Shown here: positions 32,413 through 47,723 of the stretch, in pieces
How the letters are laid out: every line of letters begins with the position of its first letter
How positions within the stretch are numbered: the first letter of the stretch is position 1
Source of the DNA: Pseudomonadota bacterium
GTDB lineage: Bacteria > Pseudomonadota > Alphaproteobacteria > Rickettsiales > UBA8987
Reading direction: 5' to 3'
DNA length: 64,000 nucleotides
Assembly: GCA_048498735.1 (NCBI GenBank)
Contig: JBEHXK010000008.1
Coordinates: forward strand, 2,604 to 66,603
Notes under the pieces: model-generated
What the model was told of the DNA's origin: nothing
What the model saw: the letters and a program-made list of their open reading frames with translations, nothing else
The model's database searches: none
Position numbers and translations under genes: made by a program

Positions 32413-33345
32413 ATGGCAATCAACTCAGAACAAAAACAAGAATTAGATAATTTAAGAACACTTTCCTTCAAAACAAAACGCGCTACAGTTCCAGCATTGG
32501 AAGAAATTTTATTTGAACCGATTCAGGTTCTTGATCACGGCTTTGTGCGCGTGGTTGATTATTTCGGTGATGATTCAGCGATCGTACAGGCGGCCCGCGT
32601 TTCTTATGGAAAAGGCACTAAGCAGGTGAACCAGGATAAAGGTTTGATAAACTATCTGATGCGCCACTGGCATACAACACCATTTGAAATGTGTGAGATA
32701 AAATTCCATATAAAACTTCCGATGTTTATTGCGCGTCAATGGATCCGCCATAGAACTGCAAATGTGAATGAATATTCTGCACGCTATTCGATCATGGATA
32801 AGGAATTTTATGTTCCTAAGCCAGAACATCTTGCACCACAATCAAAACAGAACCATCAGGGAAGAAGTGACCAGCCACTTGAAGGAAAAGAAGCTGCGAG
32901 GGTATTGGATATATTAAAGGGCGATTCGCTTCAATGTTATGATCACTATGAAGAAATGCTAAATTCAGATCAGCTGGGTAACATTAAAGATGAGAATAAT
33001 TTGGGTTTGGCACGTGAACTTGCGCGTATGAACCTAACTCTTAATTATTATACACAATGGTATTGGAAAATTGATCTTCACAATCTGTTCCACTTCCTGA
33101 TGTTGCGTGCTGATCCGCATGCGCAATATGAGATACGCGCTTATGCTGATGTTATGCTTGATATCGTAAAACGCTGGGTTCCTTTCGCATATGATGCTTT
33201 CATGGAATATAAAATGCATGGTGCGCATGTTTCGCGCACTGGCATGGAAGTGCTTAAGAGAATGATCGCGGGTGAGAAGATCACTCAGGAATCTTCAGGT
33301 ATGACTAAGCGCGAATGGGAAGAACTTACAGCAAAACTTAAATAG
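32413..33345 (+). CDS. thyX: FAD-dependent thymidylate synthase
   Basis: [31 protein letters not shown] and HAQYEIR motifs. Confidence 0.97.
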
Positions 33346-34573
33346 TTTTCTTTGCCAGGCCCAATAACTCACGTTTTTCATTTTCACTTAGGAATGTAGC
33401 GGCATTTATTCTGTTCCACAGGCTTTCTGTTCTGGGTGTTAGGGCAGAAATGGTTTCAGTGTCATAAGAAATGAACAGATTATCACTGCGTTTATACATT
33501 GGCACCAGCCAGCGATTTAAAGCATCACAAAGATCATCCATTAATGGAAGAATTGTTTGCTCCCAAAGAGCAAGACGTGCTTCTGATAGGTTGCTATAAG
33601 TATTATCTCCAGGAATGCCGAGAAGTTGCGGTGGTACGCCAAAGGCCAGTGAAATTTCACGCGCACTCATATTTTTACATTCCAGATAATCCATATCTTT
33701 ATGTGAAAGACTCATTTCCTTCCAGTCCAATCCACCTTCAAGGATTATTGGCCTACCGGCATTATCATAGCCACTATATTGTTCTTCAATTTGATTGCGA
33801 ATGCGTGAAAATTGTTCTTCTGTTAACCTTCCCACGCCGCCTTCAGAAGCCGGTTTAACAACCAAGGCTCCACTTGGTTTTGCACCATTTTGTAATAGTG
33901 CCTGATTCCATTTCGCTGCCTGATTATGTTGATCTATACTGTATGCCGCTGCTTCGATCGGCGATAGACCAAAATGATCATTAAGCGGATGGAAATTCTT
34001 GCAATGAAGTATTGCCGATTTTCCTGAGATCTTATCAACCGGATATTTGATCTCCTTATTATTTATCGAATAGAGATAATTATTAACATAACCATCTTTA
34101 TCGGTTGAAATACTTATCCTGTCGGGGCGTAAAGTATAGAGTTCACGTGGTGTTCCATCGGCAGAATTGATTGAGAGAATAAAACTATTTCCGCTGATAA
34201 GTTTATACGAAATTACTGATTCAAAGAATAATGAACCATTAGTAAGCGGGTTTGGGTAATTTAAAATATCGATTATCGGGTGTTTTTTAACGAGGTTTTT
34301 TTCATTGGAGGTAACATTATATAATTTCCAATCGATCGAAGCGACCAACTTGGAAACATAAGAAATGCACTTATAGGCGATAACATTTTTTGTATAGGCT
34401 TCGTCAGCAAATTTTGTATAATTTCTGCTCATCCATACAGGTTTTACGGGTTCATGAAAGTAAGTCTGATAGCCTATTTCACGCGCAAGCTGATCGTAAA
34501 GACCGTTATTTTTGACAGTTTTTGATCTGCCAAATAAATTGAAATTTTTGACACCGCTTTTTTTCTTACCCAT
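33338..34573 (-). CDS. HK97-family portal protein, RcGTA g3-like
   Basis: [65 protein letters not shown] and EKRELLG motifs. Confidence 0.94.
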
Positions 34574-34605
34574 TTTTACCTCGTATAAGTTGTAATAATT
34601 TCTAA

Positions 34606-34639
34606 ATTATAAGTTGAGAAAAACCTGTCCGGAAGTGCA
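34606..34639 (-). promoter_or_regulatory. Putative GTA-specific promoter of the portal gene
   Basis: Minus strand TGCAC-TTCCGG-N17-TATAAT; same architecture as 38503-38536. Confidence 0.6.
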
Positions 34640-34658
34640 TGAAATGCAAAAACAGTTC

Positions 34659-34686
34659 TTGCTTGCTTTAAAATCCCTATTATTAT
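34659..34686 (+). promoter_or_regulatory. Putative sigma70 promoter of recA
   Basis: TTGCTT-N16-TATTAT, 28 nt before the recA ATG. Confidence 0.4.
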
Positions 34687-34714
34687 TGACTCAACTTGAA
34701 TCTCAGAGGGTTTT

Positions 34715-35728
34715 ATGGATAAGAAAAAAGCACTAGAATCTGCACTTAGTCAGATTGAAAAAGCATATGGTAAAGGCTCAGTAATGAAACTGGGCGATAA
34801 AGAAATCGTTAAAGTTGAAGCAATATCTACTGGTTCATTGGGTCTTGATATGGCCCTTGGAGTAGGTGGTGTTCCAAGAGGAAGGGTGATCGAAATATTT
34901 GGCCCTGAATCTTCTGGTAAAACTACCTTAACGCTGCACATTGTTGCAGAAGCTCAGAAAAAAGGCGGTAATTGCGCATTCATAGATGCGGAACACGCAC
35001 TTGATTCAGTATATGCCAGCAAACTTGGCGTTAAGATTGATGATCTGGTCGTTTCTCAGCCGGATACTGGTGAACAGGCTTTAGAAATAGCAGATACATT
35101 AGTTCGTTCCGGCGCATTTGACGTTATCGTTGTAGATTCTGTTGCTGCACTTGTACCTAAAGCGGAGATCGAAGGCGAAATGGGCGATGCACAAATGGGT
35201 GCACAAGCAAGGTTAATGAGTCAGGCGCTTCGTAAGCTTACCGGTTCAATTTCTAAAACTAACTGCACTGTTATTTTCATCAACCAGATCCGTCAGAAAA
35301 TTGGCGTGATGTTTGGTAACCCTGAAACAACGACAGGCGGTAATGCGCTTAAATTCTATGCCTCTGTTCGTTTGGATATCAGAAGAATTGGTGCAATTAA
35401 GGATAAAGAAGAGGTTATAGGTAACCAGACGCGTGTTAAAGTTGTTAAGAACAAAGTTGCCCCTCCTTTCAGACAGGTGGATTTCGAGATCATCTATGGC
35501 GAAGGTATCAGCAGACTTGGTGAAACAATTGATATGGGCGTTAATGCCAATATCATTGAAAAATCAGGCTCATGGTTCACTTATGGCGCACAGCGCATTG
35601 GCCAGGGTAAGGAAAACGCAAAACAGTTCCTGAAGGAAAACCCTGCAATTGCTGAAGAGATCGAAGCTAAGATCAGGGCGACCCTTCCTGCTGGCGGCGC
35701 GACCGTTGGTGGCGAAGATGCAGCTTAA
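34715..35728 (+). CDS. recA: Recombinase A
   Basis: [33 protein letters not shown] and [12 protein letters not shown] motifs. Confidence 0.99.
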
Positions 35729-35765
35729 AAGCTTGCAAAATTAGCTTTTCTTCTCATAAAATTTG

Positions 35766-35810
35766 CAATATTAACAGCCCTGCTGCTATAACAGCAGGGT
35801 AATAATATTG
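35766..35810 (+). other. Stem-loop between recA and alaS, no U-tract
   Basis: CAATATTA-acag-CCCTGCTG-ctataa-CAGCAGGG-taa-TAATATTG: two stacked 8-bp stems. Confidence 0.65.
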
Positions 35811-35818
35811 GTATTTAA

Positions 35819-38488
35819 ATGTCGACAACTCCTAGAACACTCAGCGAGGTTAGAAAAAGCTTTCTGGAATTTTTCCGTTCCAAAGGGCATGAGATAGTTC
35901 CATCAGCACCACTACTTCCTCATAATGACCCAACGCTAATGTTCACCAATGCCGGCATGGTTCCATTCAAGAACGTTTTTGTAGGCAAGGAAGAATTAAA
36001 AGGCAAATCAAGCGGTAAAGTTGTTAAAGCTGCTTCGGTACAGAAATGCGTTCGCGCCGGCGGCAAGCATAATGACCTTGATAATGTTGGCTATACTGCA
36101 CGCCACCATACTTTCTTTGAGATGCTTGGTAATTTCAGCTTTGGTGATTATTTCAAAGAACATGCGATTCAGTATGCATGGGAATATCTGACAAAAGTTC
36201 TGAACCTCCCGGAAGAAAAACTTCTGGTTACGGTTTATCATAATGATGATGATGCTTTCAATATTTGGAAGAAAGTTGCAAAACTTCCTGATGAAAAGAT
36301 CATTCGCATAACTTCAGATGATAATTTTTGGGCGATGGGTGATACCGGCCCATGCGGACCTTGCAGCGAGATATTCTATGATCACGGCCCTTCTATAGCA
36401 GGTGGCCCTCCAGGCTCACCTGAACAGGATGGTGATAGGTTCATTGAAATATGGAACCTGGTTTTCATGCAATTTGAAAAGCATGAAGATGGTTCGCGCA
36501 CGAACCTGCCAAAACCATGTATTGATACAGGTATGGGCCTGGAACGTATCACAACGATTATGCAGAATGTGCACGATAATTATGAGATAGATATATTTAA
36601 AAACCTGATAGCGGCATCGAAGGAAATTTCAAAACGTGAAGGGGAGAAATATGAAGTTTCTCATCGCGTTATCGCGGATCATTTACGTTCATCATGTTTC
36701 CTGATCGCAGACGGTATTTTACCTTCAAACGAGGGCAGGGGCTATGTATTGCGTCGTATAATGCGCCGTGCAATGCGCCATTGCCATATATTAGACCCTA
36801 AACACACATGGTTTTATAAAATGATCCCTGCGCTGATAGAAAATATGGGCGCTGCCTATCCAGAGCTGCAACGTGCGGAAAGCCTGCTTACACAAACATT
36901 AAAAAGCGAAGAAGAAAAATTTCGTGAAACTCTTGATAACGGCCTGAAAATATTAGAAGGCGAGTTGAAAGGAGTTAAATCTGGCGGAGAATTGAAAGGT
37001 GAGATAGCCTTTAAACTATATGATACATATGGTTTCCCGCTAGATCTGACGCAGGATATTCTACGCAGCAAAAATATCAAAGTTGATATTAAAGGCTTTG
37101 ATGAAGCGATGGAAAAACAGCGCGAACAGGCGCGTGCTAACTGGGCTGGTAGTGGCGAACAATCTGCTGGCGAATTATGGTTAAATATTGCGAAGAAAAA
37201 TCCTAGCACTGAATTCACTGGTTATACCACACTTAAATCACGCGCTGAGATCGCAAGCATTGTAGTTGGTGATAAAGAAATTAATAAGGCACCTGTTGGT
37301 GAAGCAGCTATCATAACCAACCAGACACCATTCTATGCAGAATCGGGTGGTCAGGCTGGTGATACAGGCATTATATATTCTGATAAATTTAAATTTGAAG
37401 TGGTAACAACGAAGAAATTTGGCGGATTATTTGTTCATTTTGGTAAAATTATTTCAGGCGAAGCATCAGTTGGTGATGATGTTAATTTAGAAGTTAATGG
37501 CCAAAGGCGCGATGCACTGAAAAGAAACCACTCCGCAACGCATATATTACATGCAGTTTTGCGTAGAAAACTTGGTGATCACATCAGCCAGAAAGGTTCA
37601 TTGGTTGAGGCTGACTATTTGCGTTTTGATTTTTCTAATCAGAAAGCGGTTTCGAAAGAACAACTTGCTGAAATAGAGAGAGAAGTTAATCAAATAATCA
37701 TCCAAAACAGTGAAAGCACAACTCGCGTTATGCCTATAAAACAGGCGATGGAGAGCGGTGCGGTTGCTTTATTCGGTGAGAAATATGGAGATGAGGTTCG
37801 TGTAGTTTCTATGGGCCTGGAACAGGATAATGATAAGAAATATTCAATAGAATTTTGTGGTGGAACACACGTTAGCCGTACTGGTGATATAGGATTGTTT
37901 AAAATCACGAAAGAGCTTGCGGTTGCTTCCGGCGTTAGAAGAATTGAAGCAGTTACAGGTAATAAAGCGGTTGAATATATCCAGGGCAGAGAAGGAATTA
38001 TATCTTCAGTACAGGATAGGTTAAAAACTTCTCCGGAAGATTTTGATAACAGAATATCCGGCCTGATGAATGAGAAGAAAAATCTTGAAGGGCAGATATC
38101 TGACTTGAAAAAGAAGCTTGTGATGGGCGGTGAGGCTGGAAAATCTTCATCTGGAGTTGCTGCTGAGAATATAAATGGCGTTGCATTCATTGGCCAGAAA
38201 CTTGCTGGAATTGAGCCTAAAGATCTTCGCGGCCTGATTGATTCATATAAAAAACAGAATGAGAATTCTGTAATCGTTCTGATTTCTGATAATGAAGGCA
38301 AAGCATCTATCGCTGCGGGCGTATCGGAAAAACTGATAAATAAATTCAGCGCAGTTGAGTTAGTAAAAAAATCTTCAGAAATAATGGGCGGTAAAGGCGG
38401 CGGCGGCAGGCCAGATTTTGCTCAGGGTGGTGCGCCTTCCAGCATTAATGCTGAACAGGCTTTCGCAGAGATAAAAAAATTATTTTAA
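35819..38488 (+). CDS. alaS: Alanine--tRNA ligase
   Basis: FTNAGM, RHHTFFEMLGNFSFGDYFK, NHSATH, CGGTHV and GGKGGG motifs. Confidence 0.98.
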   Translation: MSTTPRTLSEVRKSFLEFFRSKGHEIVPSAPLLPHNDPTLMFTNAGMVPFKNVFVGKEELKGKSSGKVVKAASVQKCVRAGGKHNDLDNVGYTARHHTFFEMLGNFSFGDYFKEHAIQYAWEYLTKVLNLPEEKLLVTVYHNDDDAFNIWKKVAKLPDEKIIRITSDDNFWAMGDTGPCGPCSEIFYDHGPSIAGGPPGSPEQDGDRFIEIWNLVFMQFEKHEDGSRTNLPKPCIDTGMGLERITTIMQNVHDNYEIDIFKNLIAASKEISKREGEKYEVSHRVIADHLRSSCFLIADGILPSNEGRGYVLRRIMRRAMRHCHILDPKHTWFYKMIPALIENMGAAYPELQRAESLLTQTLKSEEEKFRETLDNGLKILEGELKGVKSGGELKGEIAFKLYDTYGFPLDLTQDILRSKNIKVDIKGFDEAMEKQREQARANWAGSGEQSAGELWLNIAKKNPSTEFTGYTTLKSRAEIASIVVGDKEINKAPVGEAAIITNQTPFYAESGGQAGDTGIIYSDKFKFEVVTTKKFGGLFVHFGKIISGEASVGDDVNLEVNGQRRDALKRNHSATHILHAVLRRKLGDHISQKGSLVEADYLRFDFSNQKAVSKEQLAEIEREVNQIIIQNSESTTRVMPIKQAMESGAVALFGEKYGDEVRVVSMGLEQDNDKKYSIEFCGGTHVSRTGDIGLFKITKELAVASGVRRIEAVTGNKAVEYIQGREGIISSVQDRLKTSPEDFDNRISGLMNEKKNLEGQISDLKKKLVMGGEAGKSSSGVAAENINGVAFIGQKLAGIEPKDLRGLIDSYKKQNENSVIVLISDNEGKASIAAGVSEKLINKFSAVELVKKSSEIMGGKGGGGRPDFAQGGAPSSINAEQAFAEIKKLF

Positions 38489-38502
38489 ATTTTTTTGCCC
38501 GG

Positions 38503-38536
38503 TGTACTTCCGGGTAAATACATCGCGGCGTAATCT
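38503..38536 (+). promoter_or_regulatory. Putative GTA-specific promoter of the protease-capsid-baseplate operon
   Basis: TGTAC-TTCCGG-N17-TAATCT; same architecture as the portal promoter. Confidence 0.6.
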
Positions 38537-38566
38537 TAGATCAAGCAATCAAGCTTGGATAAGATT

Positions 38567-39103
38567 ATGGATAGAAAAACCTCAGAGTTCGCACTCAATA
38601 TAAAATCACTTAATGAAGAAGGCTATTTTGCGGGTTATGCCAGTGTTTTTAATGTTGAAGATAATCATGGCGACGTAATTCTTACAGGTGCTTTCGGCAA
38701 TTCATTAATAAAGAACCGTTTTGGCAAAGATATTAAACTTTTGTGGCAGCACAAAAGCGATGAGCCGATCGGTATCTTTACAAAAATGTTTGAAGATGAG
38801 CACGGCTTATACGTTGAAGGTAAGCTTTTACTTGATATCCAGCGGGCTAAGGAAGCCTATGCACTTTTGGTTAATGGCGGCCTGAAAGGCTTAAGCATTG
38901 GTTTCATTGTTAAAGACTATGAAATTAATGATAAGGGGGTCAGGCTTATATACGAGGCCGACCTATGGGAAATAAGCCTTGTAACCTTTCCGGCAAATAC
39001 TCATGCAACCGTTACTGAAGTTAAAGCACATGAACTTCAGTCCAATGATCTATCTGATCTTGAAAGCTCAATTCAGAAGGCAATCGCCACTCTGATAAAT
39101 TAA
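38567..39103 (+). CDS. HK97-family prohead protease, RcGTA g4-like
   Basis: GYASVF, LLWQH (His), PIG, GLSIGF (Ser) and LWEISLVTFPA motifs. ATG 38567 preferred over TTG 38555. Confidence 0.94.
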   Translation: MDRKTSEFALNIKSLNEEGYFAGYASVFNVEDNHGDVILTGAFGNSLIKNRFGKDIKLLWQHKSDEPIGIFTKMFEDEHGLYVEGKLLLDIQRAKEAYALLVNGGLKGLSIGFIVKDYEINDKGVRLIYEADLWEISLVTFPANTHATVTEVKAHELQSNDLSDLESSIQKAIATLIN

Positions 39104-39121
39104 TAATAAGGAAAAATAAAA

Positions 39122-40321
39122 ATGACAATTTCTACAATAAATCAAAAAGTCGATAAACTCGGCAATGCGTGGGAAGAATTTAAAAAACTCAATGATCGCA
39201 GATTGCAGGAGATCGAGCACAAAGGTTCATCTGATGTTTTGACGGTTGAACATTTAAATCGCATTGGTTCTGCACTAGACGGATATAAATCACGCCTGGA
39301 TTCGCTTGAAACTGCTTATAATCGCCCCGAATTCAGCAGTGCGGATTATAACCAAAATGCAACCGCAGAAGTAATTGCCGAACATAAGAACGCTTTCCTG
39401 AACTATATCCGTAAAGGTGTTGAAGGTGATCTGGCGTTCTTAGAGCAAAAAGCACTTTCTAATGGCAGTGATGTTGATGGTGGTTATCTAGTTACCCCTA
39501 AACTATATGAAAATATGGCTCAGAAGATATTTGAAACATCTCCTATGAGACAACTTGCATCTGTTATGACAATGTCTACTGACACATTTGATGTTATCCA
39601 GGATATGGATACACCTGGTGTAGGCTGGTCAGCTTCTGAAACAGCAGTTGTTTCAGAATCTACAACTCCTCAGATTTCAAAAGTATCAATCGATGCATAT
39701 GAAGTTGTAGCACAACCTAAAGCCACACAAAAACTTATCGATGATGCGACTATTGATATCGAACAATGGATGACAGAAAAACTTGTGGATGCTTTCTCGC
39801 GACTAGAAAACACAGCATTTGTTTCTGGTGATGGTTCTGGTAAGCCAAAAGGTATTCTATCATATACAGCAGGTACTGGCGCAGGGCAGATCGAGCAAAT
39901 TCTATCTGGTACATCAGCAGTAGTTACTGCAGATGGTCTGATAAAATTATATTATGCACTAAAAGATGAATATGCTCGCAAGGCCACATTCTTAATGAAC
40001 CGCGCTACAGTTCAGGCTGTTAGATTACTTAAAGATACAACCAACCAATATATATGGAACCCCGGCCTGGCAGTTGGCACTCCAGATACATTGATGGGCG
40101 TTCCAGTAATGCTTGCAACAGATATTCCTGTTCCTGCAGCAGCATCACTTTCAGTTGCGGTGGGTGATTTTAAACGTGCTTATCAGATCGTTGACAGGCA
40201 CGGCGTTAGAATTCTGAGAGATCCATACACGGAAAAACCATTTGTTAAATTCTACACTACAAAACGTGTAGGCGGTCAGGTGGTAAACTTCGAAGCCGTA
40301 AAAATCCTTAAACTATCTTAA
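39122..40321 (+). CDS. HK97-fold major capsid protein, RcGTA g5-like
   Basis: DGGYLV, SPMRQLA, P.ATQKLIDD, F..GDG.GKPKG, GDF..AY and LRDPY..KPFV.FY.TKRVGG motifs. Confidence 0.95.
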   Translation: MTISTINQKVDKLGNAWEEFKKLNDRRLQEIEHKGSSDVLTVEHLNRIGSALDGYKSRLDSLETAYNRPEFSSADYNQNATAEVIAEHKNAFLNYIRKGVEGDLAFLEQKALSNGSDVDGGYLVTPKLYENMAQKIFETSPMRQLASVMTMSTDTFDVIQDMDTPGVGWSASETAVVSESTTPQISKVSIDAYEVVAQPKATQKLIDDATIDIEQWMTEKLVDAFSRLENTAFVSGDGSGKPKGILSYTAGTGAGQIEQILSGTSAVVTADGLIKLYYALKDEYARKATFLMNRATVQAVRLLKDTTNQYIWNPGLAVGTPDTLMGVPVMLATDIPVPAAASLSVAVGDFKRAYQIVDRHGVRILRDPYTEKPFVKFYTTKRVGGQVVNFEAVKILKLS

Positions 40322-40332
40322 TTAATAACAGG

Positions 40333-40362
40333 TTTGCGGATCTGGAAAGCCAGGTTCGCAGA
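40333..40362 (+). other. GC-rich hairpin after the capsid gene (stabiliser/attenuator-like, no U-tract)
   Basis: TTTGCGGATCTGG-aaag-CCAGGTTCGCAGA forms a 13-bp stem including G-U pairs. Confidence 0.65.
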
Positions 40363-40379
40363 TCACAATAATTAAAAAA

Positions 40380-40919
40380 ATGAAACCTCCTGTTATAGAA
40401 ATATTTCAGGCGCCATCGGTTGAGCCGGTATCGCTTGATGAAGCAAAAACCTATCTGCGTATAGATGGTGAGAATGAAGACGATCTGATAAACAGCATGA
40501 TTTCTGCGGCACGTATAACGACAGAAAAATATATTGGTCTTTCGATCATTTCTCAAAAGATCAAACTTTCATATGACGAATGTGTTCCAACGGAAATCAT
40601 TCTGCCTTATGGGCCCGTTACTGCCATCGATTCAGTTACCATTATTGATACTGATGAAAATGATAATCTGCTTGATAATTCAAATTATTATTTGAGTGCG
40701 GGTAAGGTAAGTCTGATTTTCAATCAGCAGCCATATGGTCGCAGAACGGAAATAATATACAGCACAGGCCTAGCAACAGATGAAAGTGATGTTCCAGCAA
40801 TTCTGAAACAGGGCTTATTTGCACATATCGCAGGGCTTTATGAAAGAAAGGATGCTTCGGCTGCAATGAGTTCGGCATCTATATCGCTTTATAATTTTTA
40901 TCGCAATGTAAGGATATAA
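40380..40919 (+). CDS. Head-tail connector/adaptor, RcGTA g6-like
   Basis: P.VEPVSLDEAKTYLRID..EDDLI..I.AAR...E, VP..LKQ...IA.LYE.K and C-terminal YR.VRI motifs. Confidence 0.9.
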   Translation: MKPPVIEIFQAPSVEPVSLDEAKTYLRIDGENEDDLINSMISAARITTEKYIGLSIISQKIKLSYDECVPTEIILPYGPVTAIDSVTIIDTDENDNLLDNSNYYLSAGKVSLIFNQQPYGRRTEIIYSTGLATDESDVPAILKQGLFAHIAGLYERKDASAAMSSASISLYNFYRNVRI

Positions 40920-40920
40920 C

Positions 40921-41523
40921 ATGACCTCATTCCATGATGTTAGATTTCCTGCGGATATATCATTTAAAGCCAAGGGTGGGCCAGAATTTAAAACCGATAT
41001 AGTTACACTTTCGAGCGGTCAGGAGAAACGCAATATTTCCTGGGAATCTGCACGCCACAGATACATTCTCGATTATAAGGATATATCATCGGCACAGGCT
41101 AAACAGATAAATGAATTCTTCATGGCGAGAAGAGGTCGGGCCTATGGTTTCAGATATAAAGACTGGAATGATTATACTGCCAAGAACCAGCTTATAGGCA
41201 CAGGTGATGGCACAACGAAACAATTTCAATTAGTAAAAAATTATGGTGAAGAAAATTTTAGCTTTCAAAGAAGAATTAGACGACCGGTTAGCGGGAATGT
41301 GGTTCTTTATATTAATTCTACCCAGCAACAGAACAACTTTTCTGTCGATTATAGCACTGGAATTATCAATTTTAATACAGCTCCTACCCTACATCTTCCA
41401 ATAACCGCCAGCTTTGAATTTGATGTGCCCGTCAGGTTCAATACAGACCTGCTTGAAAGCGATGTGGAGAATTTCTCAAAAACCAGCACACGCAAAATAG
41501 AATTAATAGAAGTTAAGAATTAA
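40921..41523 (+). CDS. GTA baseplate/distal-tail protein, RcGTA g12-like (DUF2460)
   Basis: FHDVRFP, GGPEF.T, SG.E.RN..W, FF.ARRG...GFR.KD, GDG....FQL.K.Y and FEFDVPVRF motifs. Confidence 0.93.
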   Translation: MTSFHDVRFPADISFKAKGGPEFKTDIVTLSSGQEKRNISWESARHRYILDYKDISSAQAKQINEFFMARRGRAYGFRYKDWNDYTAKNQLIGTGDGTTKQFQLVKNYGEENFSFQRRIRRPVSGNVVLYINSTQQQNNFSVDYSTGIINFNTAPTLHLPITASFEFDVPVRFNTDLLESDVENFSKTSTRKIELIEVKN

Positions 41524-41526
41524 GCC

Positions 41527-42360
41527 ATGAAACAGATATCAGATAATCTGCAGGCTCACCTGCAATCGGAAGTGACCACGCTTACATTCTGCTGGAAGAT
41601 CACGCTTTCCGATAGCAGCGTACTTGGTTTCACATCACATGATGATAATATAATTTTTGATGGGGTTTCATATATAAGCAGATCCGGCTTTACCCTGGAT
41701 CAATATGCAGGAGATCTGCCGCAAAACGGTAATAGCCTTGAAATACTAGGTATTATTGATTCAGATTTTTTTAACGAGGTTGATATAAGATCAGGCCGCT
41801 TTGATAATGCGGAAGTGGAAATATTCGCATTGAATTATGTTTCACCTACTGATGGTAAAGTGATTTTAAAGAAAGGGATAATTTCAGAGATCACAAATAC
41901 TGGAGATGGTTTTGCAGTAAATATAAAAGGCATCAGTGACAGACTAAATAAAACGCTCACACAATGTTACTCACCCTTATGCCGTGCCAAATTTGGTGAT
42001 GATAAATGTAAGATAGATGCAGCATCATATACTTATACCGGTACAGTCACTAATGTAACGGACGAACGTAATTTTGCCGATACATCCCGTACAGAACAGA
42101 ACGGATATTTCAATAAAGGCATAATAAAATTCACATCAGGTTCTAATGCCGGTTTCTCGACAGAAATTAAGATATCAGCAGGTTCCGCGCTGACATTATC
42201 GATACCTTTTCCGAACAAAATAAATATCGGTGATGCCTATCAGATAACCGCCGGATGCGACAAAAGTTTCCCCACATGCATCTCAAAATTTTCCAACTCA
42301 ATTAATTTTCGTGGCGAACCAGACATTCCGGGAATTAATAAAATTTTCAAGGTCAGCTGA
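41527..42360 (+). CDS. GTA baseplate hub protein, RcGTA g13-like (DUF2163)
   Basis: TT...CW....D....GFT.HD, GRFDNAEV, CRAKFGD.KC and GCDK...TC..KF.N..NFRGEP.IPG motifs. Confidence 0.93.
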   Translation: MKQISDNLQAHLQSEVTTLTFCWKITLSDSSVLGFTSHDDNIIFDGVSYISRSGFTLDQYAGDLPQNGNSLEILGIIDSDFFNEVDIRSGRFDNAEVEIFALNYVSPTDGKVILKKGIISEITNTGDGFAVNIKGISDRLNKTLTQCYSPLCRAKFGDDKCKIDAASYTYTGTVTNVTDERNFADTSRTEQNGYFNKGIIKFTSGSNAGFSTEIKISAGSALTLSIPFPNKINIGDAYQITAGCDKSFPTCISKFSNSINFRGEPDIPGINKIFKVS

Positions 42361-42806
42361 TGGATTTGCGAGAACAAATAATAGCCAAAGCGCGTGAATG
42401 GCTTGATACGCCTTTTGTTCATCAAGGGTGCAAAAAGGGCAAAGGCTGTGATTGCTTAGGTCTTATTCTTGGTGTTGGCGAAGAGCTTGGAATAAAATTC
42501 AATGGTATTCCACTGAAGAGATATGCACCTGCCAATTACAGCAGAACGCCAAACGGTTTATTGTTGAAGCAAAGATTAGATGCGCTGCTCAAAAAGAAAG
42601 AGAAAAAAGATATAAAACCCGGTGATATATTTTTGATGAATTTTGGGAGCAACCCACAACATCTGGGTTTTTTCAGTAATTATGAAAATGATTCCGCAGC
42701 CCTTGGTTTAATTCATTGTTATTCGCAGACCGGCAAAGTGGTTGAGCATAGGCTCACAAAATTCTGGCATGAGAAAATCGAGCAAGTTTATTCAATTACG
42801 GATTAG
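42360..42806 (+). CDS. NlpC/P60 cell-wall peptidase, RcGTA g14-like
   Basis: AREWLDTPF.HQG, GCDCLGL (Cys), PGD, HLG and IH: catalytic residues present. Confidence 0.92.
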   Translation: MDLREQIIAKAREWLDTPFVHQGCKKGKGCDCLGLILGVGEELGIKFNGIPLKRYAPANYSRTPNGLLLKQRLDALLKKKEKKDIKPGDIFLMNFGSNPQHLGFFSNYENDSAALGLIHCYSQTGKVVEHRLTKFWHEKIEQVYSITD

Positions 42807-42808
42807 TT

Positions 42809-45800
42809 ATGGCAACAGCAATTATCACAAGCGCAGCAGGAAATCTAACATCGTCGGTAACCAGAAGTTTGGGAATTAACTCTATTCCTTTCGCAGGCAG
42901 TGCATTGTCGAGCATACTTAATAGTCAGGTGAGGTCGCTTGGTACGCAGCTTGGTAATGAAATAGATTCAGCCCTTTCTGATGAAGTTATAAATAAAATT
43001 AAAGGGCCAAGACTAACGGATCTGACAGTTCAAACCTCAACCTATGGTGATGTTATACCACTGGTTTTTGGCAGGATAAAACTTTCAGGAAATGTGATCT
43101 GGGCATCAGATATAAAAGAAATAGGTGTTACTAACACTATAAATGGCGGAGGGAAGGGCGGCAGCGTTGCTGCGCCTAAAACAACTCAAACCCAATATCA
43201 ATATAAAGTAACATTTGCAGTTGCCCTGTGTGAAGGAGAAATTACAGGCATTGAAAGAGTGTGGGCGGATAATGACTTGATAAACTTAAGCGACTATTGC
43301 ACTTCATATACTTTATATAAAGGTGATGAAAGCCAGATGCCTGATACAATAATAGAATCATATGAAGGTATTGGAAATGTACCGGCATACAGAGGTATGG
43401 CCTATATTGTGTTTGAGGATTTTGATCTTAATTCGTTTGGTAATCGTATTCCAAATTTGGCATTTGAAGTTAACCGCACATTGAAAGGTAGTTTTAGTGG
43501 CACCGGTTCAGCAGAAGACTTAGTAACTGCAATAACCTTGATTCCTGGCTCAGGAGAATTTGTGTATGACACGATTGTGCAGAAGAAAATATATGGTGTG
43601 GTGGTTAATGATACATTTATCCAGCGCGGTGGCAGCGATATTATAAATATGAATAACGCCAGCAATAAGGCGGATGTTCTGGTTTCACTCGATATGCTGC
43701 AGGAAACCTTTCCCAATCTGGAATGGGTTTCGATAGTTTGTGCATGGTTTGCCGATTCACTTGATGCGAATGCAGCAACAATTAAGCCCGGTGTTGAATA
43801 TAAAGAAAACACCACCACAACACCTGATGTCTGGAGTGTTGGGGGTTATGATCGCGATACGGCAAAGCAGATAACCGTGGTTGATGGCAGCGCAATATAT
43901 GGAGGCACACCAAATGATCAATCTATCATAAGGCTGATAGATGAACTAAAGAGCCGCGGCTTGAAAGTTATGTTCTATCCGATGTTGTTTGTGGATAATA
44001 CCGATAAACCTTGGCGCGGACACATCACAACTTCTCCAGCGAATATTCCAAACTTTTTTACAAAAACCTATGGTTATAATGATTTCATTTTGCACTATGC
44101 CAATCTGGTAAAAAATAAAGCCGATGCATTTATCATAGGTTCAGAATTAAAAGGCCTTACCCAAGTGCAGGATGGGTCAAATAATTTCCCTGCAGTTGCA
44201 CAATTGGTCAGCCTTGCGGGCTCAGTTAAAAGCACCATGGGTTCTTACACAAAAATCACATATGCCGCAGATTGGAGTGAATATCATTCAGTTAATGGTT
44301 GGTATAATATGGATGGTTTGTGGGCGAGCAGCAATATAGATATGATCGGCATTGATGCTTATTTCCCGCTGACCAATCGTCCGCAGAATGGTATATATGA
44401 TGTTCAGGAAGTGATTGATGGCTGGACCAGTGGCGAGGGATATGACTATTATTATAATTACCCTGATCGGATTACGCAGAACACACTTGGCGTCGCCTAT
44501 GCATGGAAAAATATAGCATGGTGGTGGGGCAATCATCATACTAATCCAAATTCGGTGCAAACTTCATGGGTGCCGCAATCAAAGAAAATCTGGTTTACGG
44601 AATTCGGCTTTCCTTCTGTGGATGGTGCTACTAACCAACCTAATGTATTCTACAATCCGGAATCAACTGAAAGTGCGCTACCATATTTTTCTGAAGGCTA
44701 TAATGATTTTTCTGCACAGCGTTTGGGTATAGAGGCTACACTGTTAAAATGGCAGAACTCTAATATGATTGAAGAAAAATTCTTATGGACATGGGATGCA
44801 AGGCCATACCCATTCTGGCCGGATTTACTCGATGTATGGAGTGATGGCAGCGTATGGAGCAAAGGCCATTGGGTGAATGGTAAATTAGGCCAGGCAGACT
44901 TAGGTGCCGTTGTTAAGGAAATTTCAACCCGCTCTAATATTGAAGGAGATATAATTGATATTTCATGCCTGCAGCAGAATGTTGATGGATTTATTTTAAA
45001 CACAAGAATATCGGGTGCAAAGGCCATAGAGAAACTAAAAGATGCATATTTTTTTAATGGTTGCGAAATCGATGAGGATTTAAGATTCATTACCAGTGGC
45101 AGAGAGAGTGAGCTGGCAATTTCGGAAGATGACCTTGCGGATATTGGTAAGCAGAAACTGGTAATAAATTATATTTCTGTAACCTATCTGCCATCACATA
45201 TGGATGTGAACTTCATAAAGCGCGACAATAATTATGGAATTGGCACAACAAGCAATTCACGCGATAGTATCTCCATAAAACAGATATATGAATGTAATTT
45301 CCCACTAGTAATAGATGAGCAAAAAGCAAAATCTATTGCAGAGATATCAGTTGCTGAGAACTGGCTGGCACGGAAATTATATAAGTTTTATTTGCCGCTG
45401 AAATATATCACTTTGGATATTGGTGATTTAATAAGCCTTTCGCTTAATAACGGAAATATCGAAAAACTACGCGTGGGAAAGATAATATATAATAAGAATT
45501 ACCTAACTATCACAGGCAAGGGTTTTGATTCATCCATATATGAAATGAGAAGTAAGCAGGATTATGAGCCTGGCAATAATGTTGAGACCTCCTCGCTACA
45601 GACAGAAACGGTGGTTGAATTTTTAGACCTTCCAGCACTTTCTGAATCTGATATTGATCCGGGCACTATAAGAATTGCAGCTTGCGGGAGAAATTCTAAC
45701 TGGCATGGTGCAGAAATATTTTATTCTTTCTCCGATAATTTCCAATCGCTAACACGGATAGAAACCCCTTCAGTAATGGGAAATGCCATTGATACATTAC

Positions 45801-46522
45801 CGGATGGAAATCCATTTATATTCGATGAGAACACGGAAATAGAAATTTATCTTTTAAATGGTGAACTGACATCGGTCACTCAAGATGAAGTGATAAATGG
45901 AAGTAACCTGGCGATTATTGGCGATGAAATAATTCAATTTAGCGAAGCTGAGTTTATTGAGGAAAATCGTTATATGATAAAAGGATTATTACGCGGGCGC
46001 TATGGGACGGAAGATAAAACAAGCACGCATGTTGCGGGCGAAAGATTTATTCTGCTCGACCAGAATATAGTGCGGGTTGAATTACCAAAAACATTTATAA
46101 ATTCGGATATAAATTTTAAGGCAGTTACTTTTGGCCAGAATATAAATGATGTAGATGCTGAAAATTTTCACTATAGGGCGAATAACCTTATACCACTTTC
46201 GCCGGTTTATGTAACTGCAAGCAAAGATGGCAGTGGTGATATAAACATTTCCTGGGAGAGAAGATCGCGCGAATTTTCAGGTTGGCATGATTATGTGGAT
46301 ATACCGCTGGCAGAAGGGGCGGAAAAATATGTGCTCAATATTCTGGATGGGTCTAATAATGTAATCAGGACTATTCAGCCCACTGATCAATATTATATCT
46401 ATTTGAATTCTGAGCAGATTTCAGATTTTGGCGGTGCGGTTACCAGTTTAAATATAGAACTCTGCCAATTCTCGCAGGTAATGGGTAATGGTATTGAAAA
46501 ACAAGCGAATTTCAGCTTATAG
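42809..46522 (+). CDS. GTA 'megatron' baseplate/host-specificity protein, RcGTA g15-like, with TIM-barrel glycoside-hydrolase-like domain
   Basis: GPRL.DL, GNVIWA, PAYRG.AY.VFE, FGNRIP, LIPGSGEFVY, GGTP.D, IGSE, YAADWSEY, WFTEFG, WTWDARPYP, GHW.NG and LLRG..GTE motifs; 1237 aa. Confidence 0.94.
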   Translation: MATAIITSAAGNLTSSVTRSLGINSIPFAGSALSSILNSQVRSLGTQLGNEIDSALSDEVINKIKGPRLTDLTVQTSTYGDVIPLVFGRIKLSGNVIWASDIKEIGVTNTINGGGKGGSVAAPKTTQTQYQYKVTFAVALCEGEITGIERVWADNDLINLSDYCTSYTLYKGDESQMPDTIIESYEGIGNVPAYRGMAYIVFEDFDLNSFGNRIPNLAFEVNRTLKGSFSGTGSAEDLVTAITLIPGSGEFVYDTIVQKKIYGVVVNDTFIQRGGSDIINMNNASNKADVLVSLDMLQETFPNLEWVSIVCAWFADSLDANAATIKPGVEYKENTTTTPDVWSVGGYDRDTAKQITVVDGSAIYGGTPNDQSIIRLIDELKSRGLKVMFYPMLFVDNTDKPWRGHITTSPANIPNFFTKTYGYNDFILHYANLVKNKADAFIIGSELKGLTQVQDGSNNFPAVAQLVSLAGSVKSTMGSYTKITYAADWSEYHSVNGWYNMDGLWASSNIDMIGIDAYFPLTNRPQNGIYDVQEVIDGWTSGEGYDYYYNYPDRITQNTLGVAYAWKNIAWWWGNHHTNPNSVQTSWVPQSKKIWFTEFGFPSVDGATNQPNVFYNPESTESALPYFSEGYNDFSAQRLGIEATLLKWQNSNMIEEKFLWTWDARPYPFWPDLLDVWSDGSVWSKGHWVNGKLGQADLGAVVKEISTRSNIEGDIIDISCLQQNVDGFILNTRISGAKAIEKLKDAYFFNGCEIDEDLRFITSGRESELAISEDDLADIGKQKLVINYISVTYLPSHMDVNFIKRDNNYGIGTTSNSRDSISIKQIYECNFPLVIDEQKAKSIAEISVAENWLARKLYKFYLPLKYITLDIGDLISLSLNNGNIEKLRVGKIIYNKNYLTITGKGFDSSIYEMRSKQDYEPGNNVETSSLQTETVVEFLDLPALSESDIDPGTIRIAACGRNSNWHGAEIFYSFSDNFQSLTRIETPSVMGNAIDTLPDGNPFIFDENTEIEIYLLNGELTSVTQDEVINGSNLAIIGDEIIQFSEAEFIEENRYMIKGLLRGRYGTEDKTSTHVAGERFILLDQNIVRVELPKTFINSDINFKAVTFGQNINDVDAENFHYRANNLIPLSPVYVTASKDGSGDINISWERRSREFSGWHDYVDIPLAEGAEKYVLNILDGSNNVIRTIQPTDQYYIYLNSEQISDFGGAVTSLNIELCQFSQVMGNGIEKQANFSL

Positions 46523-46542
46523 CTTTATGTGCCAGTAAAGGC

Positions 46543-46570
46543 TTGACAGGCCGGGTTATTTATATATGTT
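46543..46570 (+). promoter_or_regulatory. Putative sigma70 promoter of rpmJ
   Basis: TTGACA-N16-TATGTT. Confidence 0.45.
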
Positions 46571-46595
46571 TGGCCTTCCAAAATTAAGAGATTTT

Positions 46596-46721
46596 ATGAA
46601 AGTTGTTAATTCACTTAAATCCGCAAAACTTCGCGATAAGAACTGCCGCATCGTGCGCAGGAAAGGCAGGGTTTATGTTATCAATAAGAAAAACCCTAAG
46701 CTAAAAGCTCGCCAAGGCTAA
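46596..46721 (+). CDS. rpmJ: 50S ribosomal protein L36, type B (no zinc ribbon)
   Basis: Below the ORF track size cut-off. Translates as [41 protein letters not shown]. Confidence 0.96.
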
Positions 46722-46727
46722 TTAGTA

Positions 46728-47723
46728 TTATTTTACGGTCAGATTAAGTATCTCATAAAGGAATTTCTCTCCTTTATCTTTTATTATCTTGTCCTTGAGC
46801 GATTGTGCTGCCTGTTTTCCAAGGGCATGTCCATCTTCTGAACTTTTTTCAATTTGATATAAATTATTACCTGCTTCATCCGAGATCTCAGCTTTCAGGA
46901 TAATATTTCCTCCCGAAATTTCTGCGTAAGCACCAATAACAGTATGGCAATTGCCGCCAAGTTCATAAAGAAATTCTCTTTCAACAATAGTGATTCTTTC
47001 AGTTGGCGCATGGTTTATTTGGCGAAGCAGATCAAAACAATTTTTATTATCAGCGCGACATTCAACACCAATAGTCCCTTGGCCTGCTGCCGGCAGCATT
47101 TCATCATATGACAGTTTGAAATAAAACAGATCGGAAAGATCAAGATTGTCACCACTTCTGATTATTGCAGATTCTGCCATAAGAATTGCATCATAGGCGA
47201 GTGGTTTATGTTCGGTCCAAACATGCATTCCCTTCAACTTTGCAATTCTGGTTTGAACGTTGCCGCGCAGGTTCTTAACGATAAGTTCAGGGTTTGAGCG
47301 TAGTAATGCAGCTTTCCTGCGCGCGGATACTGTTCCAACAACATAACCTGCCGGTAGCTCTTTGAGATTTTTAAAAGTTTTATCTTTTAGAATGATTACG
47401 TCCGCTGCCGATTCCCTTTTTAGGAAAGCTGCGAAGACTAATTCTTCTTCCCGCATATTGCCGGCAACATCTTTCATCGAATGAACGGCAATATCAATTT
47501 CGCCGCGTTTCAAGGCTTTCTGTATTTCGCTGGTGAAAGCGCTTTTGCCATCTTCAAAAATATCACGTAGAGGTTTATGATGAACCTGATCTCCCTTGGT
47601 GTTCATACCAACGATTTGGAAATCTATATCTGGATTTTTTTCTTTGAGTTTTTTGATAACAAGATCTGTCTGCGTGAGTGCAAGACTACTTTTGCGCGTG
47701 CCAACTTTAATTGTTTTTGCCAT
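46728..47723 (-). CDS. hemC: Hydroxymethylbilane synthase
   Basis: GTRKS.LA..Q, T.GD, DIAVHSMKD, RGNVQTR, PAAGQG and GGNC motifs. Confidence 0.94.
   Translation of the reverse strand: MAKTIKVGTRKSSLALTQTDLVIKKLKEKNPDIDFQIVGMNTKGDQVHHKPLRDIFEDGKSAFTSEIQKALKRGEIDIAVHSMKDVAGNMREEELVFAAFLKRESAADVIILKDKTFKNLKELPAGYVVGTVSARRKAALLRSNPELIVKNLRGNVQTRIAKLKGMHVWTEHKPLAYDAILMAESAIIRSGDNLDLSDLFYFKLSYDEMLPAAGQGTIGVECRADNKNCFDLLRQINHAPTERITIVEREFLYELGGNCHTVIGAYAEISGGNIILKAEISDEAGNNLYQIEKSSEDGHALGKQAAQSLKDKIIKDKGEKFLYEILNLTVK

Follow-up and report, generated by a model that had tools for sequence, protein, structure and literature searches.

Gene transfer agents (GTAs) whose genes lie at several loci and are regulated together by dedicated activators are already known from Rhodobacter and Caulobacter, and scattered GTA sets that lack tail-tube genes are known from Rickettsiales and Holosporaceae, as described in the portions of the literature covered here. 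We analyze a short putative promoter element, hereafter the box, that lies in front of two separated GTA blocks, the portal gene and the protease operon, on a 64,000-nucleotide stretch of DNA (the window, to which all positions without a contig label refer) from a bacterium of the order Rickettsiales (GenBank assembly GCA_048498735.1, contig JBEHXK010000008.1, positions 2,604 to 66,603). The original prediction had taken the two sites for a shared promoter and a candidate GTA regulon signal. Judging from the sequence comparisons reported below, we consider it likely that both sites belong to one promoter class that marks the regulon of a dispersed GTA of the Rhodobacter capsulatus type (RcGTA) without tail-tube genes.

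In R. capsulatus, the head-tail, fiber, and lysis genes of the GTA are located at several loci, as in the genome studied here, and are switched together by one factor, GafA, at the GTA promoter. GafA binds a 50-bp probe that holds the -10 element and the start site, with no DNA consensus given in the portions covered of PMC6363796 and PMC9638019; DUF6456 is the domain of GafA and GafZ (PMC9638019). The Caulobacter GTA promoters combine a degenerate -35 with a usable -10, where GafY helps the RpoD (housekeeping) polymerase, and about 18 accessory promoters share the activator; a GafY motif was not derivable with MEME (PMC11150451). At the Caulobacter gtaT promoter, as given in the part of PMC11150451 covered, a -35 of AATCAT and a -10 of TATCTTT flank a GafZ palindrome, and there is no CTTCCGG box. 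The reduced, scattered GTA sets of Rickettsiales and Holosporaceae form several clusters per genome, and purifying selection is reported for them (George et al. 2022, PMC9254644). They retain head, portal, and terminase genes, in some cases also distal tail, hub, and megatron, and are devoid of tail-tube genes, as is our genome. In the text of that paper covered here, which leaves function and control open, the words "promoter" and "GafA" each occur 0 times.

The genome that contains the window (G000; 1.77 Mb, scored 100% complete; Cn:pos denotes a position on its contig n, and other G numbers denote relatives) shares with RcGTA the GTA holin family (PF11351), DUF2793, and homologues of g12-g15. 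It differs in that no DUF6456/GafA homologue was found in it, its signal is a defined box at -35, and its structural genes form at least four units, with no tail-tube genes found. With the Caulobacter GafY/GafZ/IHF system, as far as that source goes, it shares the degenerate -35 and the usable -10, the differences being the lack of a DUF6456 match and a Bac_DnaA_C match that is DnaA only. Relative to the covered text of PMC9254644, the additions are the shared box and the lysis cassette and fiber operon as co-signaled units. The box was not found in the main-text portions covered of the literature on GTA promoters, Rickettsiales GTAs, or CTTCCGG or CCTTCCGG promoters; for CCTTCCGG promoters, the matches listed were mostly human TERT/ETS papers.

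The two window sites and their proposed promoter class

The elements of the two predicted promoters are listed below; bit scores are leave-one-out values from the weight matrix described further on.

34606..34611, minus strand: -10 hexamer TATAAT of the portal promoter, 17 nt 3' of the box (8.5 bits, -10 block)
34629..34636, minus strand: ACTTCCGG box in place of the -35 hexamer of the portal promoter, identical to the core of the genome-wide class; present as (C)CCTTCCGG before portal orthologues
34646..34652, minus strand: TTTTTGC, a weak form of the upstream A/T tract of the class (upstream block low, 7.7 bits)
38473..38496, plus strand: A/T tract (A-run, then T-run) in the UP-element position of the protease site (upstream block and box, 22.3 bits)
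38498..38514, plus strand: local hairpin CCCGG-TGTACTT-CCGGG over the protease box, without a T tail, seen at the protease site alone
38506..38513, plus strand: ACTTCCGG box at the -35 position of the protease-to-g15 operon promoter; orthologous full-pattern box in relatives
38531..38536, plus strand: -10 hexamer TAATCT of the protease promoter, 17 nt 3' of the box

Direct reading confirms both sites as originally described: on the minus strand, TGCACTTCCGG (34639-34629), a 17-nt spacer, and TATAAT (34611-34606) precede the portal ATG at 34573, and on the plus strand, TGTACTTCCGG (38503-38513), a 17-nt spacer, and TAATCT (38531-38536) precede the protease ATG at 38567, so that the 11-mers end 55 and 53 nt before the ATG, respectively. 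Transcription is predicted to start near 34599 and near 38543. The accessory matches reported for the two sites exist as well, with TTTTTGC 6 nt (34652-34646) and 4 nt (38492-38498) 5' of the 11-mers and TTAGA following or overlapping both -10 hexamers. They do not define the class: the exact form of TTTTTGC is not class-wide, and other members carry different bases in place of TTAGA. Likewise, the 11-mer TGYACTTCCGG is exact at both sites and over-specifies the motif, its TGY prefix not being class-wide. The A/T tract of the protease site begins within the final codons of alaS, the stop codon of which ends at 38488.

Within the window, the 11-mer with at most one mismatch has three matches (two exact) versus 1.00 expected, and at least three were obtained in 5 of 100 shuffles. 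Across G000, the bare 11-mer occurs five times, and TGYACTTCCGG-N17-TAnnnT twice, at exactly the two window sites. The shorter pattern ACTTCCGG-N17-TAnnnT has 8 matches, compared with a mean of 0.6 and a maximum of 2 in 20 first-order Markov simulations and with a single match of the reversed pattern. When the spacer is allowed to vary from 16 to 18 nt, 8 of the 12 exact sites fall outside calls of open reading frames (ORFs), though these calls cover about 93% of the genome. Among the 397 copies of CTTCCGG, 24 are outside ORF calls, and about ten of these share an A-run and T-run ending about 10 nt 5' of the motif, a preceding A, a 17-nt spacer, and TAnnAT. The class is thus composed of an A/T tract in the UP-element position, about 10 nt, ACTTCCG(G) at -35, 17 nt (range 16-18), and TAnnAT. 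Comparison of k-mers between intergenic and coding DNA does not raise the box, and TTCCGG is frequent within genes (1537 copies), so that only the composite pattern is specific.

A two-block weight matrix was built from 12 seed sites, each seed being scored with itself left out and the reversed genome serving as a control. Thirteen sites exceed 20 bits (10 left-out seeds and 3 non-seeds), against a reversed-genome maximum of 18.9; the top non-seed sites are C9:25934 (29.6 bits), C5:54577 (22.8), and C9:21518 (22.1). ACTTCCG is present on the sense strand no more than 200 nt upstream of only 22 of the 1656 ORF calls, all 6 phage-like transcription units among them, and the box is accordingly not common before unrelated genes. 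The genome-wide scan proposed for the motif found the shorter box before the terminase pair, the tail-fiber operon, and the holin-endolysin pair. The protein-coding units with the box outside the window are the following:

C9:21518 (box): TerS-like 135-aa ORF (C9:21580-21987) and TerL (C9:21996-23411; Terminase_6C, E 1.3e-13)
C1:1746 (box): tail-fiber operon (DUF2793, E 6.7e-24; PHROG tail-fiber protein; phage ORF)
C10:40895 (box, ACTTCCGG-N17-TTTAAT): GTA_holin_3TM gene (C10:41009) and Phage_lysozyme endolysin (Pfam)
C5:54577 (box): stand-alone 129-aa paralogue of the TerS-like ORF (C5:54739-55128)
C5:69318 (box): 71-aa protein that has a coiled coil and, at its C-terminus, a membrane helix
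C1:17554-19953: ornithine decarboxylase and a deoxyhypusine-synthase-family gene (PF01916, E 5.4e-50); box 24.3 bits left out

In five of the eight protein-coding units (fiber, portal, protease, TerS-like, and 71-aa), the distance from the A of the box to the start of the first ORF is 53-63 nt. The holin site was reached via relatives, through a 149-aa box-bearing protein of G001 and G003, the homologue of which is encoded at C10:41009. The TerS-like label is based on the position before TerL and on weak cluster leads, the nearest ESM Atlas clusters of the 135-aa ORF being viral hypothetical proteins (0.91) and a T5 small-terminase cluster (0.86), with NCBIfam also weak. Terminase_6N has no match in a genome-wide search of G000, and the ATPase half of TerL may be divergent, or the first-look filter may have passed it over. 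A small terminase that turned into a regulator is one conceivable reading of the stand-alone copy; G002 encodes a weakly similar stand-alone 223-aa ORF that also has the box.

The two window blocks and the genes between them are arranged as follows:

33338..34573, minus strand: GTA portal, a single gene for a protein of 411 aa, divergent from recA (Pfam Phage_portal, E 1.3e-84)
34715-35728: recA, between the portal and protease blocks (Pfam)
35819-38488: alaS, between the portal and protease blocks (Pfam)
38567..39103, plus strand: prohead protease (ATG 38567; the ORF listing starts at TTG 38555; Pfam Peptidase_S78, E 3.8e-32)
39122..40321, plus strand: major capsid protein (Pfam Phage_capsid, E 4e-79)
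40380..40919, plus strand: head-tail adaptor, g6-like (Pfam Phage_connect_1, E 4.1e-09; PHROG head-tail adaptor, E 2.2e-20)
40921..46522, plus strand: distal tail and baseplate genes, namely DUF2460 (g12-like), hub (g13-like), NlpC/P60 (g14-like), and GTA_TIM megatron (g15-like) (Pfam)

Portal and recA are divergent and 141 nt apart (34574-34714), and in G001-G003 the DNA upstream of the portal gene likewise reaches a recA-like start on the other strand, as judged by eye. Beyond the portal gene, the next ORF (32413-33345) is on the opposite strand. The hub gene matches Phage_phiJL001_Gp84_N/BR0599, and a terminator-like hairpin (46540-46552) lies 3' of the last gene of the operon. By Pfam matches, G000 contains the RcGTA-type core set (terminase, portal, protease, capsid, and adaptor) together with distal tail, hub, peptidase, megatron, fiber, GTA holin, and endolysin. 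Phage_HCP, Tail_completion_gp17, and Phage_tail_2, the g7-g9 equivalents, have no match across G000, in a search that did not include tape measure and chaperone families. The adaptor and DUF2460 genes are within 2 nt of each other (window 40380-41523), and the same adjacency is found in G002, G003, G005, G008, G011, G016, and G017, of which G016 has a weak Phage_tail_2 match and the other six have none. This looks like a subclade with a GTA that is devoid of a tail tube and retains baseplate, fibers, and lysis genes.

Conservation of the box in the order

Among 40 relatives from the same order, the portal was found in 32 (33 of 41 genomes with G000), the capsid in 31, and TerL in 37. In these genomes, the box takes the form (C)CCTTCCGG and has been retained upstream of portal, protease, TerS, fiber, and holin genes in several families within the order; its presence before orthologous GTA blocks answers the concern that it might be absent in relatives. 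Before the portal, CTTCCG occurs in the sense orientation in 15 of 25 usable windows and in the antisense orientation in none of the 25. Before TerL (-800 to -200, the windows being taken upstream of the small ORF), it occurs in 17 of 27 windows in sense versus 6 of 27 in antisense, with the full pattern in 12 versus 1, and before the protease block in 9 of 26 versus 2 of 26, with the full pattern in 6 of 26 versus 1. In an unbiased count of 8-mers, CCCTTCCG was the commonest in the TerL upstream windows (10 of 27).

The protease-block box is seen where that block is apart from the portal (G002, G003, G005, G017, and others) and not where the cluster is contiguous. The split between portal and protease, with the two blocks divergent and about 4-5 kb apart, is common to G002, G003, and G017, so that both promoters would date from before the separation of these genera and would have been retained. 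The flanking DNA has changed beyond alignment, whereas the box, its spacing, and its orientation persist. In congeners, the orthologues of the fiber, holin, and 71-aa genes carry the box.

A pattern scan of the order gave at least one match in 59 of 121 genomes, unevenly with respect to the control (7 vs 0 in G003, 5 vs 5 in G050, and 5 vs 3 in G052). Eighteen of these sites, from G061, G023, G114, and G107, were inspected individually. In G061, which belongs to another family, two of four sites precede portal and protease. Of the six sites in G023, two are before toxin-like or MuF-like ORFs, two are terminator hairpins, and two have no clear assignment; in G114, none of four is convincing. 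Three of the four sites in G107, a genome of another family, are paralogous noncoding loci without a convincing ORF (L198, L199, and L200), an arrangement that echoes the multi-copy small RNA (sRNA)-like loci of G000 described below.

Furthermore, in relatives, the box lies about 6 nt before the ATG of genes for proteins with a common N-terminal region and variable C-termini (L118 in G001, L125 and L131 in G002, L159 in G003, and L186 in G023), one of the C-termini matching Colicin_E5, and it also precedes genes for small MuF-like head-morphogenesis proteins (L129 in G003 and L187 in G023). These genes raise the possibility of a link between toxin cargo and the GTA regulon; homologues of the proteins with the Colicin_E5-type N-terminal region and of the MuF-like proteins are absent from G000.

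Other loci behind the box

The remaining members in G000 include two sRNA-like families of three paralogues each (about 180 and about 230 nt long, without a conserved ORF) and an orphan site:

C2:63225 (plus), C12:22500 (minus), C18:7891 (minus): sRNA-like loci, one three-copy family
C1:198833 (minus), C3:143561 (plus), C7:30888 (minus): sRNA-like loci, the other three-copy family
C1:195572: orphan box site, 16.6 bits left out

Each sRNA-like locus lies behind a box and ends in a short hairpin centered on GGCGCC; together, these loci own six of the seven genome-wide copies of this hairpin. Twelve loci had no Rfam match at gathering thresholds, and for seven loci searched at E up to 1, the single match was at chance level (STnc510, 19.3 bits vs a gathering score of 80); hence, the sRNA-like loci are in no curated family. 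ARAGORN called 0 genes on the same 12 loci, indicating that the orphan promoters do not drive tRNAs. Neither sRNA-like family has a blastn match in 20 relatives, a result that is not countable as absence of conservation. The C7 copy lies 5' of a 747-aa ORF that, by eye, resembles purL.

A pair of minus-strand sites at C9:25934 and C9:27377 was considered as a third sRNA family and rejected; the two loci coincide with the 5' ends of two Reprolysin-like genes, tandem paralogues with 37% identity. The boxes are antisense in the first codons of these genes, each of which has its own plus-strand extended -10. C9:25934, with 29.6 bits as a non-seed, is a possible antisense promoter; for the two sites together, antisense promoters and chance sites preserved through the gene duplication are both conceivable.

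As for the ornithine decarboxylase operon, the orthologue in G002 and G003 is preceded, at a distance of about 190 nt, by a box-like element whose -10 is poorer, and there is no box upstream of the orthologue in G001 and G017. That the operon supplies polyamines for DNA packaging is speculation.

Reading of the predicted promoters

The box matches the -35 consensus of sigma-70 (TTGACA) at 2 of 6 positions. A scan with the sigma-70 consensus over 33000-47000 listed neither site and no well-placed alternative before either block. Elsewhere in G000, CTTGACA is enriched in intergenic DNA (14 vs 1.6 expected), from which we conclude that the canonical type is in use. A degenerate -35 with a usable sigma-70 -10 is found both at the GTA head cluster and at the accessory loci. 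We infer that the box region is a promoter that would need a factor and through which the units would be co-expressed; dependence on an activator is deduced from one feature, the non-canonical -35. In the mechanism that we propose, RNA polymerase with the housekeeping sigma would read the -10, and a dedicated factor (an activator at the -35 position or a protein that replaces sigma region 4) would be needed because so few -35 positions agree with the consensus. A single factor could then switch terminase, portal, head, baseplate, fiber, and lysis genes together across six contigs. A factor acting with the housekeeping sigma is favored since the -10 is of the sigma-70 type. Middle and late phage promoters of the T4 MotA/AsiA type, in which an activator box replaces the -35 and the sigma-70 -10 is kept, have a like architecture (a box at about -30 to -35 and a TAnnnT -10); the box sequence is unrelated, and the likeness is an analogy only.

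Searches with DUF6456, Bac_DnaA_C, and Sigma70_r2/r4/r4_2, and the distribution of extracytoplasmic function (ECF) sigma genes, brought out no regulator candidate. DUF6456 gave weak matches over the cut-off in 4 of 41 relatives, and when five of these weakly matching proteins served as tblastn queries, no match in G000 had an E value below 0.19. L175 (G004) and L179 (G014), DUF6456 proteins of different genera within the family, are nearly identical, including their upstream DNA, which suggests a shared mobile element and not a resident GTA regulator.

Several observations weigh against a GTA-specific class under a dedicated factor. DUF6456 (PF20057) has no match in G000 at E 0.1, at which the Caulobacter control matched, and PF08299 (Bac_DnaA_C, the helix-turn-helix resembling the GafY and GafA N-terminal region) finds DnaA alone in G000 at E 1, a search that a very divergent homologue could escape. 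By the matrix alone, two sites are within the control range, the portal site with 16.2 bits and the holin site with 13.8 bits when left out, and their membership is based on conservation of the box in relatives and not on the matrix score; moreover, the -10 of the holin promoter is TTTAAT. The matrix is shaped by the choice of seeds, despite leave-one-out scoring and the reversed-genome control, and the gene calls are crude longest-ORF calls. CTTCCG itself is lacking in 10 of the 25 portal and 10 of the 27 TerL windows of relatives, which, being kin, do not give independent counts. G023 has six pattern matches versus none in the control, yet no portal, capsid, or TerL was found there with three queries. 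Finally, the class is not confined to GTA genes, given that at least six sRNA-like loci, the orphan site, and the polyamine operon carry the box. On balance, the sequence evidence supports the regulon signal originally proposed, with a rare box before every phage-like unit of the genome and its retention in relatives; the regulon that it would mark extends beyond the GTA genes.

Among the alternatives, the one that survives best, which we nevertheless consider unlikely, is that an alternative or sigma-like factor reads the box as its -35 element (RpoH used in a variant way, or an unrecognized protein resembling sigma region 4), in which case the box would not be an activator site. The box is exactly in the -35 position with a fixed 17-nt spacing, and in Rhodobacter, the C-terminal region of GafA is sigma-like and discussed as a possible alternative sigma (PMC6363796, in the part covered). 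To compare the box with heat-shock promoters, the respective genes were located with short protein motifs (dnaK, C9:48713; dnaJ, C2:112337; groES, C2:42875-43349; lon, C3:110308). The promoters of dnaK, dnaJ, and groES read CTTG-N19-20-TATATA, probably the RpoH class of this genome, and that of lon has CCTTTAC upstream of TATATT. The geometry is similar, with the CTT preceding the -10 by 24 nt in the box class and by 23-24 nt in the heat-shock promoters, whereas the -35 and -10 both differ: most sites of the box class have a sigma-70-like TAnnAT with A at position 5, where the four heat-shock promoters have T. At groES, ACTTCC is located 8 nt 5' of CTTGAA. As to the proteins that might serve, matches to the sigma-70 region 2/4 models in G000 are limited to RpoD, RpoH, and two ECF-type genes. 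One of the two ECF proteins, used as a query, had no match at E 1e-8 in G001, G007, G011, G013, and G016, and three of the five, G001, G007, and G013, have GTA genes preceded by the box. No box lies 5' of either ECF gene in G000.

We give distinctly little credence to the idea that the box is the site of a broader regulator, for example, of growth phase or stress, with the GTA being one target set among others. It has in its favor that 9-11 of about 17 sites in G000 are not phage-like (six sRNA-like, the orphan, the ornithine decarboxylase pair, and two antisense), that G107 has three paralogous noncoding box loci, and that the box occurs in G023, where the three GTA queries found nothing. No site, however, precedes ribosomal, tRNA, rRNA, or heat-shock genes; the members conserved across genera are GTA units; the polyamine site is weaker or missing in congeners; and the two interpretable sites in G023 precede genes associated with phage heads (a toxin-like gene with the Colicin_E5-type N-terminal region and a MuF-like gene).

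That the likeness of the window sites is due to chance or is a relic of the portal/protease split, with the plus-strand motif being the terminator hairpin of alaS, is scarcely credible. In its favor, the sites are 3.9 kb apart and flank the inserted recA-alaS pair, the plus-strand box is part of a hairpin of 5 bp that follows the alaS stop by 10 nt, and the one-mismatch count in the window was equaled in some shuffles. The survey of the whole genome and of relatives speaks against it, however: the box recurs at the same spacing before unlinked GTA units on five other contigs and is conserved in other genera and families, and the hairpin lacks a T tail, is not called by a terminator scan, and has no counterpart at other class members.

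Returning to a promoter class that marks a GTA regulon, we tentatively entertain a wider version, although it is more doubtful than the class itself: an order-wide "GTA box", (C)CCTTCCGG at -35, might be read by a factor unrelated to GafA/GafYZ and control a regulon of scattered, tail-tube-less GTA genes together with lysis genes, polyamine synthesis, and multi-copy small RNAs, to which relatives would add polymorphic toxins (one having a Colicin_E5 domain) and MuF-like head proteins. This would be a rare GTA regulon that is readable from sequence alone, no DNA consensus being given for the GafA/GafY systems in the covered portions of the papers on them. The box is open to mutation and usable as bait for the factor, for prediction of the regulon across the order, and as a read-out of GTA induction in metatranscriptomes. 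A cis-signal that all units have in common, including lysis, and that persists from genus to genus counts as evidence of coordinated control, and whether the reduced, scattered GTA sets of the Rickettsiales kind still work becomes, through the box, a testable question. If the order-wide GTA box is real, the reduced GTAs would be working particles under tight control and not decaying relics, and these particles might be short-tailed and might carry protein cargo.

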